Part shown: in pieces, positions 1 through 6,362 of the stretch
Position numbering within the stretch: position 1 is the first letter of the stretch
Layout: every line of letters starts with the position of its first letter
Origin: a virus
DNA length: 12,844 bases
Virus genome (UHGV): UHGV-0098265
Direction: 5' to 3' (one strand)
Translations under genes and position numbers: made by a program
Notes under the pieces: model-generated
What the model was told of the DNA's origin: nothing
Seen by the model: only the letters and a program-made list of their open reading frames with translations
The model's database searches: none

Positions 1-90
1 ATCCAAACTCAATATCCAGTGCATCAAAAAGCCAAAGCGGCGTTTGCCAGCAGTCTCTAACTTCTTTTGGTGTTTCTGATTTATGCTTAA

Positions 91-627
91 TCATTCAACC
101 CTCGCATATTGTCCGTGATATTTGTTGATAGCCTCACTGGCAACCAAACCAGCAAGCTCAAGATCTTCATAGAACCCAAAATGCAACCGGCCAAAATCTG
201 TGCGCACTTGAACGGCCCATTTATTTTTTTGCTTGTTCCATAAAACATTTTTTATTCCAGAACGGCTATTGCACTTAGTTTTCTGATTTCGGCTGTTTGC
301 TATCCGGTTTGCCTCCCTAAGATTTTTTGGGGAATTGTCCAGCCTGTTTCCGTTAATATGGTCAATATTTTTCAATGGCATTCTTTTGTTGTGCAGCGCA
401 AAAACAACTACGTGAACAAACATCTGAATGCCTGCAAAACACACCTGTCTATACCCAGATCCATTTATCGATGTTTTAATTTCATCTCCGGCCCGGTGGC
501 TGTGGTTGGGGTGTTTTAGCGAGTCCTTTTTGTATCTGACTGTATCTCCGTCTAAATACAGATAATCCTCAATAAGCCGATACCTATCTGACGCTGGTTG
601 AGCTGGTGTATTTGATTTGATAGTCAT
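91..627 (-). CDS. HNH endonuclease with C-terminal AP2-like DNA-binding domain (homing-endonuclease-like); alternative upstream start at 654
   Basis: ORF track 91..654. HNH-type motif HINGNRLDNSPKNL and His-rich N-terminal part; C-terminal segment resembles an AP2 domain. The ATG at 627 overlaps the ninB stop as ATGA and follows a GGGAAGG Shine-Dalgarno, so 627 is preferred over 654. Confidence 0.75.
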   Translation of the reverse strand: MTIKSNTPAQPASDRYRLIEDYLYLDGDTVRYKKDSLKHPNHSHRAGDEIKTSINGSGYRQVCFAGIQMFVHVVVFALHNKRMPLKNIDHINGNRLDNSPKNLREANRIANSRNQKTKCNSRSGIKNVLWNKQKNKWAVQVRTDFGRLHFGFYEDLELAGLVASEAINKYHGQYARVE

Positions 628-1070
628 GCAGCCTTCCCTTTTCGTTGTGACCATTCATACTCTCGCCGGGAGTCATCACTCCACCGCACGTTGCGCTCTG
701 AGCCGAACCAGAACATGATTTCGATAAGCTCAGTCATGCTGGCCTTTCGCATTTTGCTGGTACGCACGCCAAGCATGACAACGCCACCGTCGATACCAGG
801 AACACTTCGTTGCTCCAGTTTTTTGGTCTTAAGCCACAGGGCAGTGAACAGGTCTTTCCAGTCTTCCGGTGCCAGCCGTTGACCATGCCATAGCACCTGA
901 CGCGAAACATCGTTCAGCATCGGCCACATACGGTCATTCTGCGCTTTGCTGCGTTTGGGTTCTTTAAGGTGGACTTCGTGGGGTGACTTGTCGTCGATGG
1001 GAAGTGAGAGTATTGCGTCTATGGCGTTATTTCTGATTGCTTCGTTGCGAAGCATGTATATTTGCTTCAT
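624..1070 (-). CDS. ninB: NinB (Orf-family recombination mediator), divergent from lambda NinB
   Basis: 148 aa. Recalled similarity to lambda NinB (N-terminal NAI motif, DQN...W, LGDVSRQV.WHG, central VKWSDE-like C-terminus) and position downstream of ren and the tR2-like terminator. Confidence 0.85.
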   Translation of the reverse strand: MKQIYMLRNEAIRNNAIDAILSLPIDDKSPHEVHLKEPKRSKAQNDRMWPMLNDVSRQVLWHGQRLAPEDWKDLFTALWLKTKKLEQRSVPGIDGGVVMLGVRTSKMRKASMTELIEIMFWFGSERNVRWSDDSRREYEWSQRKGKAA

Positions 1071-1344
1071 CGAAATTCTTCTCTTTAATTCCAGCGGATC
1101 TGATAGCTTTCATTACTGCAATTACCGTTTTGTCTCTCCCATCCTCATAACCCATCGCATAAGCACCTTCTTCACCATCTTTCCAAAAGTCGTCATTCGA
1201 TTCGGGCCAGTCGATATCCAGTTCAATAGCAGAGCGCGATGCCTGCCATATCACCCAGGCAAACTCTTTTAATTCATCGTCTCCCGTGAACTGGCTTTTG
1301 TCTTTTGACCACCAGTTTTCAAACTGTCGGTAGCTATCGTTCAC
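1027..1344 (-). CDS. Hypothetical acidic Trp-rich protein between tR2 and ninB (NinA-position gene); start GTG 1344 or TTG 1359
   Basis: ORF track 1027..1359. The lambda ninB Shine-Dalgarno (GGGGAGAGGGAAG) is retained immediately upstream, but is followed by GTG and a different reading frame; the composition is protein-like. Overlaps the ninB start by 44 nt. Confidence 0.5.
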   Translation of the reverse strand: MNDSYRQFENWWSKDKSQFTGDDELKEFAWVIWQASRSAIELDIDWPESNDDFWKDGEEGAYAMGYEDGRDKTVIAVMKAIRSAGIKEKNFDEANIHASQRSNQK

Positions 1345-1356
1345 TTCCCTCTCCCC

Positions 1357-1390
1357 CAAATAAAAAGGCCTGCGATTACCAGCAGGCCTG
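1357..1390 (-). terminator. tR2-like intrinsic terminator
   Basis: On the minus strand: AGGCCTGC-tggtaatc-GCAGGCCT hairpin followed by TTTTTATTT, located between ren and the nin-region genes as in lambda. Confidence 0.75.
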
Positions 1391-1414
1391 TTATTAGCTC
1401 AGTGATGTAGATGG

Positions 1415-1705
1415 TCATCTTTTAACTCCATATACCGCCAATACCCGTTTCATCGCTGCACTCTGGCGACACTCCTTAAAAATCAGGTTCGTGCTCACCT
1501 TTCCTTCCCGTTCTTCCCTGGTAGCAAACCGGTAATACACCGTTCGCCAGACCTTACCATCAATGACCAGGATTCCTGCCCGCGCCATTTTAGCCGCAGC
1601 CTGATTTATGCTGGTTACTGTTGCGCCTGTTAGCGCGGCAACGTCCGGCGCACAGAAGCTATTATGCGTCCCCAGGTAATGAATAATTGCCTCTTTGCCC
1701 GTCAT
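1415..1705 (-). CDS. ren: Ren protein (lambda Ren, near-identical)
   Basis: 96 aa. Sequence MTGKEAIIHYLGTHNSFCAPDVAALTG... matches lambda Ren as recalled. ATGA overlap with the P stop. Confidence 0.93.
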   Translation of the reverse strand: MTGKEAIIHYLGTHNSFCAPDVAALTGATVTSINQAAAKMARAGILVIDGKVWRTVYYRFATREEREGKVSTNLIFKECRQSAAMKRVLAVYGVKR

Positions 1706-2403
1706 ACACTTGCTCCTTTCAGTCCGAACTTAGCTTTAATTTCTGCGATCTTCGCCAGCGCCTGAACACGATTTAGAGGTCTGCCGCCCATGACAGGAAG
1801 TTGTTTTACTGGTTCAGGTATCGTCTCACCACGGTTAATTCGCGCTGTCATACAGGTCAGTTCATCGGCAGCCTTGCGTCGTAATTCCGCGTCAGTCAGC
1901 GCATTGGCCCGCATGTTCTGGTACAGGTTGGTAACCAGCCAGTAGTGCGCGTTCGATTTCCACGGATAAGACTCTGCATCCGGATACAGGCCTCGCTTCC
2001 GGCAATACTCGTAAACCATATCAACCAGCTCGCTGACGTTTGGCAGTCCGGCGATAACGGATGCTTCTTCCCGGCACCATGCAACAAACTGCCCGGGTGA
2101 TGGAAGAAATGGTCGATTCTGCCGACGGGCTACGCGCATTCCTGCGTTAACCTGTTCCATCGAGGTGATCCCGTTTTCCCGGAAAGCCAGAACCCACTGG
2201 CGGCGGATTTCATTCAGTTCGTTCTGGTCCCGGTTAGCCAGACTCGCCGGGAAAGTTGCCAGTAACTGGCTGAACACACCGTTGATGATCTGCGCTACCT
2301 GTTGTACCTGCGGCTTTTCGTCGTACTGTTCCGGCATGTTGTTGGCGATCCGACGCATCTGCTCACGGTCAAAGTTAACCATCTGTGCGGCGATGTTTTT
2401 CAT
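1702..2403 (-). CDS. P: Replication protein P (DnaB helicase loader), lambda-like
   Basis: 233 aa, the same length as lambda P. Sequence MKNIAAQMVNFDREQMRRIANNMPEQYDE... matches lambda P as recalled. ATGA overlap with O. Confidence 0.95.
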   Translation of the reverse strand: MKNIAAQMVNFDREQMRRIANNMPEQYDEKPQVQQVAQIINGVFSQLLATFPASLANRDQNELNEIRRQWVLAFRENGITSMEQVNAGMRVARRQNRPFLPSPGQFVAWCREEASVIAGLPNVSELVDMVYEYCRKRGLYPDAESYPWKSNAHYWLVTNLYQNMRANALTDAELRRKAADELTCMTARINRGETIPEPVKQLPVMGGRPLNRVQALAKIAEIKAKFGLKGASV

Positions 2404-3338
2404 AAATCCACCCCGTAAATCCAGTCAGTGTTTGTCAGGTCGAGTTTTGGTTTTCCAGCTGTCACGCCAGCCTGTTGCTTGTTACGGTTGATTTCGAGCT
2501 GGGTCCACTTGTCGCGGAGTTTGGCCGGACTTAGCACGTTACCGGACCAGAAGTTGTCCTGGCATGCCCAGCGGAACAGCACGCACATGTCGCGGTGGTT
2601 ACGTCCGTCACGTTCACGCATCAGGCGGATATCGTTAGCCCACCCTGCAAAATTCGGTTTTCTGGCTGATGGTGCGATGGTCTTCACCATGTCAAACATC
2701 CACTCTGCGGCGGTCAGGTCTTCTGCTGTTCCCCACTTGCTGCCGCTCTGAATTGCAGCATCCGGTTTAACCACAGAAAGATCGTTTTCTGGCTGGTCAG
2801 AGGATTCGCCAGAATTCTCGGACGAATAATCTTTTCTTTTTTCTTTTGTAATAGTGTCTTTTGTGTCCCCCTGTTTTGAGGGATAGCAATCCCCTAATTT
2901 GAGGGATGTTTTATCCCTCGTTTTAGGGGATTTTCCCTCGTTTTGAGGGATGTCCCTCATTTTAGGGGAACCTCCCTCGTTTTGAGGGATGCACCATTCT
3001 GAGATGTTTTTATTTGGTCCAAACATGCCGCCTTGCTGCTTGATAATATTCATTCTGACGAGTTCTAACTTGGCTTCATTGCACCGTTTGACAGGTAACT
3101 TTGTAATCTCGCTAAGTTGAGAATCGGTGATTCTGTCCATTGGTTTATTCCACCCATAGGTTTTACGCAGAATGGCAAGCAGCACTTTAAACTGTCGCTT
3201 GGTCAGATCTGCGCCTGAATAAGCCTCAATCAGCATATTTGATAGTCTGGCGTAACCATCATCGAGATCTGCCACATTACGCTCCTGTTTGGCAAAGTTA
3301 CCTCTGCAGAAGTTGAGTATTTTTGCTGTATTTGTCAT
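2400..3338 (-). CDS. O: Replication initiator protein O, lambda-like, with a 13-aa insertion in the iteron-encoded linker
   Basis: 312 aa versus 299 aa in lambda. N- and C-terminal sequences match lambda O as recalled; the ori iterons are embedded in the coding sequence. Confidence 0.95.
   Translation of the reverse strand: MTNTAKILNFCRGNFAKQERNVADLDDGYARLSNMLIEAYSGADLTKRQFKVLLAILRKTYGWNKPMDRITDSQLSEITKLPVKRCNEAKLELVRMNIIKQQGGMFGPNKNISEWCIPQNEGGSPKMRDIPQNEGKSPKTRDKTSLKLGDCYPSKQGDTKDTITKEKRKDYSSENSGESSDQPENDLSVVKPDAAIQSGSKWGTAEDLTAAEWMFDMVKTIAPSARKPNFAGWANDIRLMRERDGRNHRDMCVLFRWACQDNFWSGNVLSPAKLRDKWTQLEINRNKQQAGVTAGKPKLDLTNTDWIYGVDL
2866..2990. repeat. Lambda-type replication origin: six iterons (about 18-19 bp palindromic TCCCTC-N-GAGGGA units), with an adjacent AT-rich unwinding region at about 2813-2862
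   Basis: Six tandem units read directly in the sequence (for example tccccctgttttgaggga, atcccctaatttgagggat, atccctcgttttaggggat, tccctcgttttgagggat, tccctcattttaggggaa, tccctcgttttgagggat), next to an A/T-rich tract cttttcttttttcttttgtaatagtg. Confidence 0.9.
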
Positions 3339-3370: not shown

Positions 3371-3667
3371 TCAGAATTCCATCTGGATTTGTTCAGAACG
3401 CTCGGTTGCCGCCGGGCGTTTTTTATTGATGATTTCATCAAGCGCATACTTAAAAGCCCTGCTAATCGGACTGATGTCTGATGCCATTCCGAAAGCACAC
3501 AGGACCGAAGCAATAAACCGCCAGTCCGTTCTGCTTATCTTCGATTCATGACAGCCAATCATCTTTGCCAGACCGCGCTGGGTAATAGCTGACAGATTGA
3601 TAAGTAAATCTGTTTCTGCGCGATCAACGTCACGCTGTGATAGTTTGCTGTAACTTGTTCTTTCCAT
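3371..3667 (-). CDS. cII: CII-like transcriptional activator (C-terminus identical to lambda CII, divergent N-terminal part)
   Basis: 98 aa. C-terminal NKKRPAATERSEQIQMEF matches lambda CII; the gene sits between cro/nutR and O. Confidence 0.85.
   Translation of the reverse strand: MERTSYSKLSQRDVDRAETDLLINLSAITQRGLAKMIGCHESKISRTDWRFIASVLCAFGMASDISPISRAFKYALDEIINKKRPAATERSEQIQMEF
3653..3666 (+). promoter_or_regulatory. Candidate CII-binding site and PRE -35 region (TTGC-N6-TTGT)
   Basis: TTGCtgtaacTTGT lies on the strand reading toward cI and overlaps the 5' end of cII, the same arrangement as lambda PRE (TTGC-N6-TTGC). Confidence 0.35.
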
Positions 3668-3731
3668 TTCTTACTATTTCCATAGGTAAATAATCACTAA
3701 TACTCATCTTTCGATGAGTGCTTAATTAGTT

Positions 3732-3766
3732 ACCGCGTTGTCGGCGGTGCAGATTGATAAAGAGCG
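3732..3766 (-). promoter_or_regulatory. nutR (boxA CGCTCTTTATCA plus boxB hairpin ACCGCCGACAACGCGGT, P22-type)
   Basis: Read on the minus strand just downstream of the cro stop. boxA matches the consensus and boxB matches the P22 nutR boxB as recalled. Confidence 0.65.
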
Positions 3767-3773
3767 GTGTTAC

Positions 3774-4001
3774 TTATGCAGCCAGAAGGTTCTTTTTACT
3801 TATTTCAAGCATTTCGCTTGCTTGATATTTGCCACCAGAAATCTCTTCGATTTTTGAGGCGTATTTCGTTTTCCCAAAAAACTCAGTCTTAGGGAGGAAG
3901 CCGTTTTTGAGCCACTTATAGACAGCCCTTTCGCTAACTCCACAAGCCTTCGCAACTTCAGGTATGCCGACACCTTTAATCGGCTCATCAAGAGTTTGCA
4001 T
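3774..4001 (-). CDS. cro: Cro-like HTH repressor
   Basis: ORF track 3774..4034. An internal ATG at 4001 is preceded by AAAAGGA and lies downstream of the predicted PR transcription start, whereas the 4034 start lies upstream of it. HTH-like GIPEVAKACGVSERAVYKWL. Divergent to cI. Confidence 0.75.
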   Translation of the reverse strand: MQTLDEPIKGVGIPEVAKACGVSERAVYKWLKNGFLPKTEFFGKTKYASKIEEISGGKYQASEMLEISKKNLLAA

Positions 4002-4079
4002 AGGAATATCCTTTTTCGTACTTTCAGTACGCATTATGATTGAACTGAAAGTTTTTGCAAGTGCTTTAGTATCGTACTC
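4002..4079. promoter_or_regulatory. OR operator region with divergent PR (toward cro) and PRM (toward cI)
   Basis: 78-bp intergenic region between divergent cro and cI. Dyad symmetries CGTAC-TTTCA-GTACG and ACTTTCAGT...ACTGAAAGT; palindromic TTGCAA hexamer with a 17-nt spacer to ATAAT on the cro strand; TAGTAT about 7 nt before the cI ATG suggests a leaderless cI mRNA from PRM. Confidence 0.6.
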
Positions 4080-4787
4080 ATGGTTCAGAATGAAAAAGTG
4101 CGCAAAGAATTCGCCCAGCGGCTAGCGCAAGCCTGTAAAGAAGCTGGTCTTGATGAACATGGTAGGGGAATGGCTATAGCCCGTGCCCTTTCTCTTTCGT
4201 CCAAAGGCGTTAGCAAATGGTTTAATGCTGAGTCTTTACCGCGTCAGGAAAAAATGAATGCGCTTGCGAAATTTCTAAACGTTGATGTTGTTTGGCTTCA
4301 GCACGGCACTTCGTTAAATGGAGCGAATGATGAAGATACTCTTTCATTTGTTGGCAAATTAAAAAAAGGGTTAGTGCGCGTGGTTGGTGAGGCAATTCTT
4401 GGTGTTGATGGTGCCATCGAGATGACCGAAGAACGCGATGGGTGGCTCAAGATTTATAGCGATGATCCAGATGCCTTTGGTCTTCGTGTGAAAGGAGACA
4501 GCATGTGGCCCAGAATAAAATCAGGAGAATATGTACTCATTGAGCCTAACACCAAAGTATTCCCGGGTGATGAGGTGTTTGTCAGAACCATCGAAGGACA
4601 CAACATGATCAAGATTCTTGGCTATGACAGAGATGGAGAATACCAATTTACAAGCATCAACCAGGACCACAGACCAATAACGTTGCCTTATCATCAAGTA
4701 GCAAAGGTGGAGTATGTGGCTGGTATTCTGAAGCAATCTCGCCATCTGGATGACATCGAGGCAAGGGAGTGGCTGAGAAATTATTAA
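4080..4787 (+). CDS. cI: CI-type prophage repressor (N-terminal HTH, C-terminal S24/LexA-like autopeptidase domain); non-lambda immunity specificity
   Basis: 235 aa. C-terminal GDSMWPRI motif (Ser nucleophile) plus a downstream Lys, typical of RecA-stimulated self-cleaving repressors; divergent from cro. Confidence 0.9.
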   Translation: MVQNEKVRKEFAQRLAQACKEAGLDEHGRGMAIARALSLSSKGVSKWFNAESLPRQEKMNALAKFLNVDVVWLQHGTSLNGANDEDTLSFVGKLKKGLVRVVGEAILGVDGAIEMTEERDGWLKIYSDDPDAFGLRVKGDSMWPRIKSGEYVLIEPNTKVFPGDEVFVRTIEGHNMIKILGYDRDGEYQFTSINQDHRPITLPYHQVAKVEYVAGILKQSRHLDDIEAREWLRNY

Positions 4788-4911
4788 TACCAATAGCATA
4801 GAGACGAAAATGCGACAGGTTTTAGGTACAAATCATAACCCTATCCACAAACAACGTTGTAAATATACACATAAGACTATTGTAAAAAAAGCTCTATCCC
4901 AGTAAATGCGG

Positions 4912-4940
4912 TTGCAAAATGGGTTGATCGAGCATATATA
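4912..4940 (+). promoter_or_regulatory. Candidate sigma70 promoter for the accessory cassette (TTGCAA-17-TATATA)
   Basis: Hexamers read by eye with 17-nt spacing, about 15 nt upstream of the GTG start at 4954. Confidence 0.3.
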
Positions 4941-4953
4941 AGGAGTATAGTTA

Positions 4954-5316
4954 GTGACCCAAGATGAAACGAATGAATATCTGAAAACCTTAGCATTGGT
5001 TCCAAGTGCAGAGGCCTCCGCAGAGGAGAAGCAGATATATAGCGTCAAAAAGGCTGTAATCGGTCTGATTGAATTTGTTACAACCAGTCTTGAAGAGCTT
5101 GGAATTGAAGGGTTGCATGAGTTAACAAACCCATCTCTTGACGAATTAGATGCAGAGCTAGAGAAACTTGACCAAAAAGCTGATGCAATCAATGAACTAA
5201 ACTTAAAGCAAATCATCATATTTGCACAGATTTTAATCAAAAACATAAGAGAAAAGAATCCTGATTTGTGCTCTGAGGGATCAAAACTACTCAAGAGTGC
5301 TAAATCGGGTCTTTGA
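4954..5316 (+). CDS. Hypothetical acidic helical protein, 120 aa, in the rex position downstream of cI
   Basis: GTG start preceded by TAAGGAG at 8-nt spacing; AT-rich relative to cI; no intrinsic terminator between cI and this gene; no homolog recognised. Confidence 0.7.
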   Translation: MTQDETNEYLKTLALVPSAEASAEEKQIYSVKKAVIGLIEFVTTSLEELGIEGLHELTNPSLDELDAELEKLDQKADAINELNLKQIIIFAQILIKNIREKNPDLCSEGSKLLKSAKSGL

Positions 5317-5339
5317 CACTTACAGAGCGGAGGATAAAC

Positions 5340-5462
5340 ATGTCTAGAACTGAACATATCAAAGATATGCTTAAAAGTGCGGATCGAATCAATCAGATTA
5401 TTGCTGAAATGAAGCAGAGAAAAGCAGAAATGCTAGCATCAAAGCTTCCAATGGCAGCATAA
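5340..5462 (+). CDS. Hypothetical 40-aa basic helical peptide (MSRTEHIKDMLKSADRINQIIAEMKQRKAEMLASKLPMAA)
   Basis: ATG preceded by GGAGGATAAACA; follows the 120-aa gene after a 23-nt gap; immediately followed by an intrinsic terminator. Below the ORF-track size cutoff. Confidence 0.55.
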   Translation: MSRTEHIKDMLKSADRINQIIAEMKQRKAEMLASKLPMAA

Positions 5463-5470
5463 CCAAAAAC

Positions 5471-5493
5471 ACCCGCTTCGGCGGGTTTTCTTA
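5471..5493 (+). terminator. Intrinsic terminator ending the cI-accessory cassette transcript (tImm-like)
   Basis: CCCGC-ttcg-GCGGG hairpin followed by TTTTCTT. Confidence 0.8.
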
Positions 5494-5739
5494 TTCCCCT
5501 AAAAAGATCAAACAACTCCACATTAGCTTTTTTGTGCCCACAGTTTTCTACCTAGCAGTTTTCTTTGCCTCCCGATCCACCATCTAAAAACACATAACCA
5601 ATTGTATTTATTGAAAAATAAATAGATACAACTTGCTAAACCACGCAATTCTGATCCCTGCCGCATAACCTTCATCCGCAACATTTACAAAAATAAATTT
5701 CCTTATATATCAAAATCATATTTCGTAGAGTTAATAAAT

Positions 5740-5800
5740 CATAAACGATTCGTACCAATAGTTCTTGATAATATCGAACTACTGGTTCATTATTATCGCC
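5740..5800 (+). promoter_or_regulatory. Candidate PL promoter and OL operators
   Basis: TTGATA with 17-18 nt spacing to CATTAT/ATTATT, about 45 nt upstream of nutL boxA. Shares TTCGTAC and ATCGNACT motifs with the OR region. Confidence 0.4.
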
Positions 5801-5839
5801 ATCAGCAGGACGTTGGAAGCCAAACGGAACAGATTGGCG

Positions 5840-5874
5840 GGCTCTTTAACTTCGATGGGGCGCTGACAAAGCGC
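5840..5874 (+). promoter_or_regulatory. nutL (boxA GGCTCTTTAAC plus boxB hairpin GCGCTGACAAAGCGC, P22-type)
   Basis: boxB is identical to the P22 nutL boxB as recalled, with a boxA-like element 10 nt upstream; located in the leader upstream of N. Confidence 0.7.
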
Positions 5875-6053
5875 AAACAGATACCAAACGAGATGGGTTT
5901 GGCGGTGTGGTGAAGGGTTCATGGACGGGAATATGTCGCACGTAAAGCGGCGAGGCCTGCGGGACTATTGCCGAATTGAAGTAGGCCGAAACAGGTCGAA
6001 ATGGGTCTCCCACCTACCTCACCACCAAAGCCATTTTACATGAGGAAAACATC

Positions 6054-6362
6054 ATGACGGTAATCGTGTACGGGAAATCAACATTTACAGGAAATGCCAA
6101 AACTCGCCGTCATGAGCGGCGCAGAAAGCTGGCTATCGAGCGTGATGCTATATGCAACATCATCGATTCGATCTTCGGTACAGACAGTGATGAACCTGTT
6201 CAGAAAGAACCGAGAAAGCGTTTAAGCCTTTCTGAAAAAGCAATATCACTCGGCAACATTCGTAACCAAAATACCGACGAATGCAATGGAAGCATTTGCC
6301 TGCCAAACGTAGCCATCTACGTGGCAGGCTATCGGAAATCAAAACAACTGACGGCGAGGTAA
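6054..6362 (+). CDS. N: N-type transcription antiterminator with a P22-type arginine-rich motif
   Basis: 102 aa. N-terminal GNAKTRRHERRRKLAIERD matches the P22 N boxB-binding peptide as recalled. GAGGA Shine-Dalgarno 7 nt upstream; positioned downstream of PL/nutL. Confidence 0.85.
   Translation: MTVIVYGKSTFTGNAKTRRHERRRKLAIERDAICNIIDSIFGTDSDEPVQKEPRKRLSLSEKAISLGNIRNQNTDECNGSICLPNVAIYVAGYRKSKQLTAR

Follow-up and report, generated by a model that had tools for sequence, protein, structure and literature searches.

How does a nuclease gene come to stand between two phage genes that are elsewhere joined directly, and what kind of element would it be? The question is raised by a 12,844-nucleotide stretch of the virus genome UHGV-0098265 (here called the window, always at its full length), which is the early region of a lambda-like prophage with its rightward operon on the minus strand, and which has an open reading frame (ORF) for an HNH nuclease between the nin-region gene ninB and a phage dam gene. 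From comparisons with related loci, and by analogy with known homing enzymes, we consider it likely that this ORF is a free-standing homing endonuclease gene of the HNH(HNN)-AP2 type, which sits in the first codons of the dam gene of a 933W-like lambdoid prophage and targets the 5' end of that gene. The features on which the argument turns are as follows.

624..1070, minus strand: ninB (orf), a recombination mediator gene (Pfam NinB, E 4e-48; stop TGA at 626-624)
91..627, minus strand: HNH(HNN)-AP2 endonuclease ORF of 178 aa (MTIKSN...YARVE, then stop; ATG at 627-625, TGA at 93-91)
602..627, minus strand: first 26 nt of the HNH ORF (ATGACTATCAAATCAAATACACCAGC), which are the start and first codons of a resident 933W-type dam, fused in frame to the HNH body (933W alignment)
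56..601, minus strand: segment missing from 933W-type ninB-dam junctions, comprising the HNH body and a substitute dam initiation region, in place of 10 nt (ACACGACAAG) (alignments)
53..103, minus strand: cassette-borne dam start, with a Shine-Dalgarno-like GAGGG at 103-99, ATG at 94-92 and the 14-codon leader MIKHKSETPKEVRD at 94-53 (sequence and translation)
1..94, minus strand: 5' end of the gene for a phage N6-adenine methyltransferase (Dam family, PF05869) (translation; RefSeq annotation of identical loci; Pfam Dam on the homologues of two related loci, L116 and L121)

Insertion into the first codons of dam

In 933W and in many Stx phages ninB is coupled straight to dam via ATGA, and the flanks of the locus in the window are 96-97% identical to 933W, which has no HNH gene. 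When the two are aligned, no difference is seen across ninB and the first 26 nt of dam; beyond this point the sequences diverge, and the HNH ORF opens with the start and first codons of the resident dam (MTIKSNTPA). The right breakpoint lies just ahead of GACTGCTGG, and the match to 933W resumes at GACTGCTGGCAAACG, which is dam codon 13 onward; the 14-codon leader stands in place of MTIKSNTPAHDKD. The dam gene runs past the left edge of the window, and its visible translation is MIKHKSETPKEVRDCWQTPLWLFDALDIEFG. Our genome counts were taken from 5,426 complete Escherichia coli genomes and depend on the BLAST thresholds used; in these, the cassette leader is confined to loci that carry the HNH gene or are derived from such loci (42 genomes).

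Judged by these alignments, the HNH gene is an insertion, and its site is dam rather than ninB. The same comparisons show the mobile unit as the HNH body together with a 3' copy of the dam initiation region (Shine-Dalgarno sequence, ATG and 14-codon leader). As read from the sequence layout, the HNH ORF would after insertion be translated from the resident dam start, itself ATGA-coupled to ninB, while dam would be restarted from the cassette's own leader via a second ATGA overlap, so that the nin operon stays intact.

The earlier note on this DNA, written from the window alone, had proposed a mobile insertion next to ninB, with lambda as the reference. The mobile insertion is borne out by the comparison with HNH-less relatives, in which the 933W-type ninB-dam junction is uninterrupted. 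The gene is indeed inserted beside ninB, but the reference arrangement is the 933W-type ninB-dam junction and the constant neighbour is dam; the lambda arrangement is ninB-ninC. The coupling to ninB that the note had read from the sequence is present as an ATGA overlap at 627-624, where the HNH ATG (627-625) lies over the ninB TGA, and a second overlap, which the note did not have, is found at 94-91, where the HNH TGA (93-91) lies over the dam ATG (94-92). The ORF that it had placed at 91-660 is real and on the minus strand, but the conserved start is ATG 627, which shortens it to 91..627. A longer frame from ATG 654 was rejected, since loci whose upstream genes are unrelated share sequence only from about 6 nt ahead of ATG 627, and the RefSeq start of the gene (WP_052167194.1, product label 'HNH endonuclease') is the equivalent of ATG 627.

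Two observations on annotation and sequence variation at these junctions may be added. The dam coding sequence that follows the HNH gene in L002:2564-3091 begins in RefSeq at ATT, one codon past the overlapping ATG, and the start annotation of dam genes downstream of HNH cassettes is inconsistent in RefSeq. The HNH copy in the window has 9 extra nt (ACCAGCTCA; residues QPA) at 592..609 on the minus strand, which gives 178 aa compared with 175 aa; they are missing from 16 of 16 IMG/VR copies and from the E. coli copies checked. They form an imperfect tandem 9-mer exactly at the left breakpoint of the cassette, within the low-confidence N-terminus of the structural model.

dam as the constant partner in four lineages

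In IMG/VR, 16 viral contigs carry the HNH gene at 95% identity or higher, and in all 16 a dam gene with the cassette leader lies directly downstream. The gene upstream varies: in these contigs it is the ninB of the window, a 42%-identical ninB or something else, and over all the loci compared three NinB alleles, DUF1367 and an unrelated 100-aa ORF occur there. Nucleotide homology among the HNH loci starts some 6 nt ahead of the HNH ATG. Downstream, by contrast, all close relatives and four lineages, at HNH identities as low as about 50%, have dam as the next gene, its start overlapping the HNH stop. On this comparative evidence dam is the constant neighbour of the HNH element, and its 5' end the probable target.

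The inconstancy of the upstream gene also bears on the view that the protein has been domesticated, as a nuclease or as a DNA-binding protein, and serves the phage by excluding competitors, by helping recombination beside NinB or by acting as an AP2-type repressor. Translational coupling to a recombination mediator gene would fit such a role, as would the purifying selection described below; Orf-family proteins are fused to HNH domains in other phages (PMC4118853), and phage AP2-domain proteins are able to act as transcriptional silencers (bioRxiv 10.64898/2026.02.23.707548). However, the proteins in the Orf-HNH fusions are from another family (DUF968, zinc-finger HNH), the present protein has an intact nuclease motif, which sets it apart from binding-only AP2 proteins, and the gene is sporadically distributed and frequently lost. 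A functional link between the HNH gene and ninB, modelled on the Orf-HNH fusions, was set aside because the upstream partner is not constant, and we hold domestication in general to be very unlikely.

The second lineage, L116, is an independent second site of insertion. Its HNH protein is 77% identical to the window type and its gene sits between a DUF1367 gene and dam, with an ATGA overlap with dam. The body of its Dam protein is 48% identical to the window type (about 55% at the nucleotide level), as against 93% identity to the Dam of the loci L117-L119, in which DUF1367 is joined straight to dam, with no HNH gene and with the canonical leader MTDKSNTPPEDKD. L116 and L117 are identical through ATGACCGACAAATC, 14 nt into dam, and the match resumes at TGGCGCACC; the block between these breakpoints in L116 consists of an HNH body and the leader MIKHKSQTPIESRD. 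The breakpoints of L116 and of the window lineage are homologous. When L038, a window-type IMG/VR contig, is compared with L116, upstream nucleotide identity is at background level; it rises to about 75-85% between HNH nt 33 and approximately dam codon 14 and drops to 45-60% beyond. Taken together, the L116/L117 and L038/L116 comparisons therefore indicate that the HNH body and its substitute leader have moved as a unit, to the same codons in two dam genes whose sequences have diverged too far for homologous exchange of the ordinary kind.

The order canonical-type leader, HNH, atypical leader and Dam is also seen in two further lineages.

L121: HNH 55% identical to the window type; HNH N-terminus MTIQSNTAPQDKD...; dam leader after HNH MSYPITKTPKEIRD
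L006 (Rosenbergiella): HNH 54% identical to the window type; N-terminal part ..NTPIEHKED... (5' end cut by the contig edge); dam leader MSYPNTKTPLENRD

The patterns of similarity of HNH and of Dam disagree across the lineages, and each Dam of the window lineage and of L116 is 93-99% identical to the HNH-less Dam of its own lineage. In all four lineages the cassette leaders differ from canonical leaders at consistent codons, SNT having become SET, SQT or TKT and DKD having become xRD, whereas HNH-less canonical leaders share SNT and DKD. Between the window and L116 the ratio of nonsynonymous to synonymous substitution rates (dN/dS) of the HNH gene is about 0.1, with dS near saturation, and this substitution pattern is a clear sign of long-term purifying selection on the gene. 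More distant members of the HNH family have no dam within 4 kb.

These comparisons have to be set against another account of the locus, in which an inactive or no longer homing HNH-AP2 gene is a passive passenger, moved solely by lambdoid mosaic recombination at gene boundaries. The break in homology with relatives does fall exactly at gene junctions, some 6 nt ahead of the HNH ATG, as in a typical lambdoid mosaic; few loci are occupied, many copies are decayed, and in some prophage lineages dN/dS is about 0.6-0.7, calculated from very few substitutions. Such passage is possible for the recent spread within the 933W-like group. The same cassette is, however, found at homologous codons of dam genes with 48% identity at the protein level, a site which homologous recombination should not find, and the catalytic residues are intact and the long-term dN/dS is low. 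We therefore rate the passenger account as unlikely, and retain the homing endonuclease gene as the better explanation.

As a side observation on the methyltransferase family, the Dam (PF05869) homologues P0247, P0252, P0259, P0261, P0268 and P0277 are fused to a C5 DNA_methylase domain, and L116 has a separate C5 methylase gene at 3447-4553, between ninE and ninF.

Occupancy, decay and loss

The alleles found in the complete E. coli genomes were counted as follows.

Window-type ninB joined directly to canonical dam: 626 genomes
Uninterrupted canonical dam 5' end with any upstream gene (the 626 included): about 1,550 genomes
HNH gene present: 34 genomes, two of them broken by IS100, many from poultry
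Cassette-type leader present: 42 genomes (34 with HNH, 2 with footprint, 6 HNH-less)
14-codon footprint only: 2 genomes (strains E2 and PK12)
HNH absent and ninB joined directly to a cassette-type leader: 6 genomes

The HNH gene thus occupies about 2% of comparable dam loci, which is far from the distribution of a conserved core nin gene, the finding that the earlier note had named as one that would speak against its proposal. Decay is seen in several forms. IS100 (istA/istB) interrupts the HNH gene towards its 5' end in E. coli 503829 (L004:3052-4853) and also in strain 503440, and the protein clusters P0003, P0005 and P0006 are frameshifted or truncated HNH proteins. In E2 (L003:2001-2045) and PK12 (H86) a footprint reading ATG ACT ATC AAC AAA TAT CAC ... 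TGA is left, a deletion between two CTATCAA repeats, which encodes the mini-ORF MTINKYHGQYVRVE followed by a stop. This mini-ORF still overlaps ninB on one side and dam on the other by ATGA, and thus seems to serve as a stepping-stone that maintains translational coupling.

The junctions of two of the six HNH-less genomes with a cassette leader, E308 and TW10590, were inspected. In E308 (L122:1240-1260) ninB now ends in ...GRVE and stop, the final codons of HNH, and by its sequence the junction is a deletion between the repeated initiation regions at the ninB 3' end (GAGGGCTGCATGA) and the HNH 3' end (GAGGGTTGAATGA); in TW10590 (L123) the joint is at the ATGA itself. We also considered the MIKHKS leader as an ancestral dam allele upstream of which HNH had been inserted, but this is disfavoured by the L116/L117 comparison and by the E308 junction. 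From their leaders, the HNH-less alleles of E308 and TW10590 are predicted to be empty yet nuclease-resistant. The series as a whole fits what is expected for a selfish nuclease gene, namely invasion, decay and imprecise loss.

The distribution also speaks to a functional explanation of why HNH and dam are neighbours. An HNH nuclease and a Dam methylase could form a restriction-modification-like or methylation-sensing pair, in which the nuclease attacks DNA that lacks the phage methylation and adjacency reflects function, and the overlapping arrangement of the two genes, kept in every close relative and across four lineages to about 50% identity, is what such a pair would show. Co-inheritance was nevertheless not found: dam occurs without HNH in about 98% of comparable E. 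coli loci (about 1,550 versus 34), and HNH is lost or broken where dam is intact. The histories of HNH and Dam are incongruent, distant family members have no dam nearby, the architecture and the closest structures are those of homing enzymes, the only match in PADLOC is a weak one to 'homing endonuclease' (E 0.0022), and the canonical leader region, on inspection, lacks GATC. We regard such a pair as highly improbable, a shade more so than domestication.

The encoded protein

The two domains of the protein have the following positions.

289..420, minus strand: HNH_3 / His-Me finger core, residues 70-113, with D89, H90, N102, N111 and N114 (Pfam envelope and alignment)
103..258, minus strand: AP2-like DNA-binding tail, about residues 124-175, three beta strands and one helix (family profile and predicted fold)

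The HNH motif noticed earlier is confirmed by Pfam HNH_3 (PF13392) with 40.4 bits (E 2.3e-10; residues 70-113, model positions 2-46 of 46), above the curated cutoff of 24.8 bits, and the protein also matches PHROG 99 'HNH endonuclease' (E 9e-43). In an alignment of 62 homologues H72, D89, H90, N102, R104, N111 and N114 are invariant, and in the family profile (match to 1U3E, E 4.6e-9) D89, H90, N102, N111 and N114 align to D74, H75, N87, N96 and N99 of I-HmuI, residue numbers which were counted by hand from the profile alignment. The protein has no Cys dyads (CX2C) and so belongs to the 'HNN' subtype, as do the phage HNN-AP2 enzymes (PMC2248197). The beta-beta-alpha-metal fold was found in the predicted structure. 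By profile, residues and fold the protein can be assigned to the HNH_3 / His-Me finger endonucleases, for which metal-dependent cleavage is predicted.

For the AP2-like tail the evidence comes by three routes. Pfam AP2 is matched by 36 of the 62 aligned homologues (best E 2.3e-9); the family profile matches the AP2 domains of the plant proteins WRI1 (E 1.6e-5) and TEM1 (E 2.4e-3) at profile positions 92-158; and in the AlphaFold model (pLDDT 91.3) the C-terminal end is made of three strands and a helix, with the three-stranded antiparallel sheet packed on one helix that defines the fold. According to homologues, family profile and predicted fold, the C-terminal tail is AP2-like, and the combination of HNH core and AP2-like tail has the homing-endonuclease architecture that was first suggested for it. 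The observed HNH ORF and its domains are far beyond chance.

An exhaustive HMMER scan returned 68,916 cluster representatives at E<=1e-3, three of them at E<=1e-30. The matches typically span residues 45-176, so nuclease and tail travel together. In 866 phage records members of the family bear the annotation HNH or homing endonuclease. NCBIfam gave no match to the protein.

Proposed mechanism and its weight

The steps that we propose, from recognition and cutting to repair and self-protection, are inferred by comparison with I-HmuI and other HNH homing enzymes. The enzyme would act in the lytic cycle, or upon induction in a cell that also contains an HNH-less lambdoid genome; it would bind DNA via its AP2 tail and N-terminal region and would nick or cut the canonical dam 5' region, around ATGAC..CAAATCAAATAC.CC...GACAARGAC. 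This candidate target, CAAATCAAATAC.CC ... GACAARGAC, is conserved in 933W and L117 and altered in every cassette leader. Repair off the HNH-bearing copy would transfer the cassette, and the recoded substitute leader probably shields the carrier from self-cleavage. In prophages the HNH gene would be silent, so that it would decay or be deleted, and exclusion of HNH-less competitors would be a by-product; action against co-infecting phages, which the earlier note had also raised, is plausible given the analogous marker exclusion that T4 homing endonucleases bring about.

It is tempting to go one step further and to describe the element as a leader-capturing cassette for phage Dam (PF05869), which takes the ribosome-binding site, start and first codons of its target for the nuclease and carries a recoded, cleavage-resistant copy of the initiation region from which the target would restart. 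We put this forward tentatively, as a possibility with slightly less than even prospects when judged from sequence. If true, the design permits invasion of tightly overlapping, coupled operons without polar effects, and it has been kept in lineages of enterobacterial prophages whose nucleases have diverged to about 50% identity.

Several points weigh against a homing endonuclease that targets dam. For this protein and its close relatives we infer homing, that is cleavage, a target and super-Mendelian inheritance, from sequence and from analogy. The cassette could have spread by ordinary mosaic recombination at gene boundaries without help from the nuclease, and the six HNH-less alleles with a cassette leader could in principle be ancestral and not derived, although the E308 junction and L116/L117 speak for derivation. 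A DNA search with the HNH gene gave no match in 50,697 phage records, and a protein search of phage records gave about 38% identity at best, with no close relative in a sequenced phage isolate; activity in a viable phage is therefore putative. Finally, Pfam AP2 (PF00847) gives no direct match to the protein at E<=1, which leaves the tail that the earlier note had described to its indirect support. We nevertheless regard homing into dam as the likely explanation of the locus.

To our knowledge, free-standing HNH-AP2 endonuclease genes are very common in phages and almost none has a known target. Here, comparative data alone yield a candidate target of about 50 nt, the 5' end of phage dam, and natural 'empty', 'occupied' and 'resistant-empty' alleles are available in E. 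coli lambdoid prophages, which are among the easiest for phage crosses; homing, self-immunity by recoding and competitor exclusion are thereby directly testable. The case illustrates how a selfish gene can enter an operon of overlapping genes with translational coupling unbroken, and annotators should expect a non-canonical leader at the start of a dam gene that follows such a cassette.

Sequence context of the locus

The other features of the window that were used to place the locus are listed below.

1366..1389, minus strand: tR2-like intrinsic terminator upstream of the nin genes (terminator scan)
1415-1705, minus strand: ren
1702-2403, minus strand: P
2400-3338, minus strand: O
3371-3667, minus strand: cII
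3774-4034, minus strand: cro-like gene
4080-4787, plus strand: cI
6054-6362, plus strand: N

Further plus-strand genes of the window are kil, gam, bet and exo. The neighbours of the HNH gene are ninB, dam, ninE, ninX, ninF and ninG. The gene sits inside the N-antiterminated nin operon, and a promoter scan gave no sigma-70-like promoter in 1..1800 and hence none near the gene. With no promoter-like site nearby, expression should therefore depend on N-antiterminated read-through and translational coupling. The GC content is about 0.40-0.43 in the HNH block versus about 0.52 in ninB. The closest nucleotide match of the locus is the IMG/VR contig L037 (99.4% over 1,400 nt), and related HNH proteins carry the labels Escherichia albertii or E. 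coli.

Gene position also bears on a role in packaging. HNH proteins that act as helpers of the terminase exist in many cos phages. The present protein might accordingly be a packaging-associated endonuclease like HK97 gp74, and HNH proteins of that role are mentioned in PMC11855218; it is, however, of the HNH_3/AP2 class, which is distinct from the terminase-linked one, and because its gene stands with ninB and dam in the early nin operon, at a great distance from the nearest terminase gene, the role can be excluded for practical purposes, as the least credible of the explanations weighed here.

Apart from the nin region, a 174-aa ORF at 4833..5357 on the minus strand, between cI and N, has no Pfam, PHROG or PADLOC match and is adjoined by about 700 nt (5358..6053) without any ORF of at least 60 aa. 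The position between cI and N is the one where lambda has rexAB, the 174-aa ORF being opposite in strand. It may be an uncharacterised moron or defence gene.

Comparison with known systems

Intronless homing of stand-alone nuclease genes that lie between or inside conserved genes, with the function of the host gene preserved, is established for the Seg and Mob proteins of the T4 family and for mobE, which splits nrdA in Aeromonas phage Aeh1. The T4-family free-standing homing endonucleases are GIY-YIG enzymes or members of different HNH subfamilies, as a rule with promoters of their own, and we know of none that supplies a duplicate N-terminal leader to the invaded gene. The gene for I-HmuI of Bacillus phage SPO1, an HNH homing and nicking endonuclease (PDB 1U3E), lies within a group I intron, and the DNA-binding modules at the C-terminus of that enzyme are helical, whereas the HNH gene in the window is free-standing and encodes an AP2-like domain.

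The class of free-standing HNN-AP2 endonucleases is already known (PMC2248197; Magnani et al. 2004 as cited there). The HNN-AP2 genes of the Xanthomonas phages Xp10/OP1/Xop411 and of T5, T1 and other phages encode the same architecture, an HNN His-Me finger without Cys dyads and an AP2 domain, and like the present gene they are free-standing, scattered and in various stages of degeneration (PMC2248197). No conserved flanks were reported for the Xanthomonas-phage genes, and sequence-independent transfer was proposed for them (PMC2248197); the present gene, in contrast, is found in the same dam codon region in four lineages and brings a replacement start for its host gene. An HNH-AP2-type gene of the Stx1 phages AU6Stx1 / SH2026Stx1 also lies in a lambdoid nin region and is 38% identical over 157 residues including the AP2 tail, but it is located upstream of ninG, after a large opposite-strand gene, has no link to dam and represents a different subfamily.

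A parallel in the choice of target is the 'hidden HNH' with ShiLan domain in an actinobacteriophage DNA methylase gene (PMC11855218), which likewise appears to home into a methylase and to leave it usable. In that case the insertion is within the methylase ORF and is read through in frame, with the HNH in another frame and with a GTG start (PMC11855218), whereas in the cassette described here, from a different phage group, HNH takes the methylase start codon and terminates, and the methylase restarts from the cassette leader. In our literature search a dam-linked HNH cassette was undescribed, and neither dam-leader specificity nor start capture with a replacement initiation region was found. 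The class is thus known, and the RefSeq label is already 'HNH endonuclease'; the variant feature of the element in the window is the capture of the dam start together with a cassette-borne dam initiation region.

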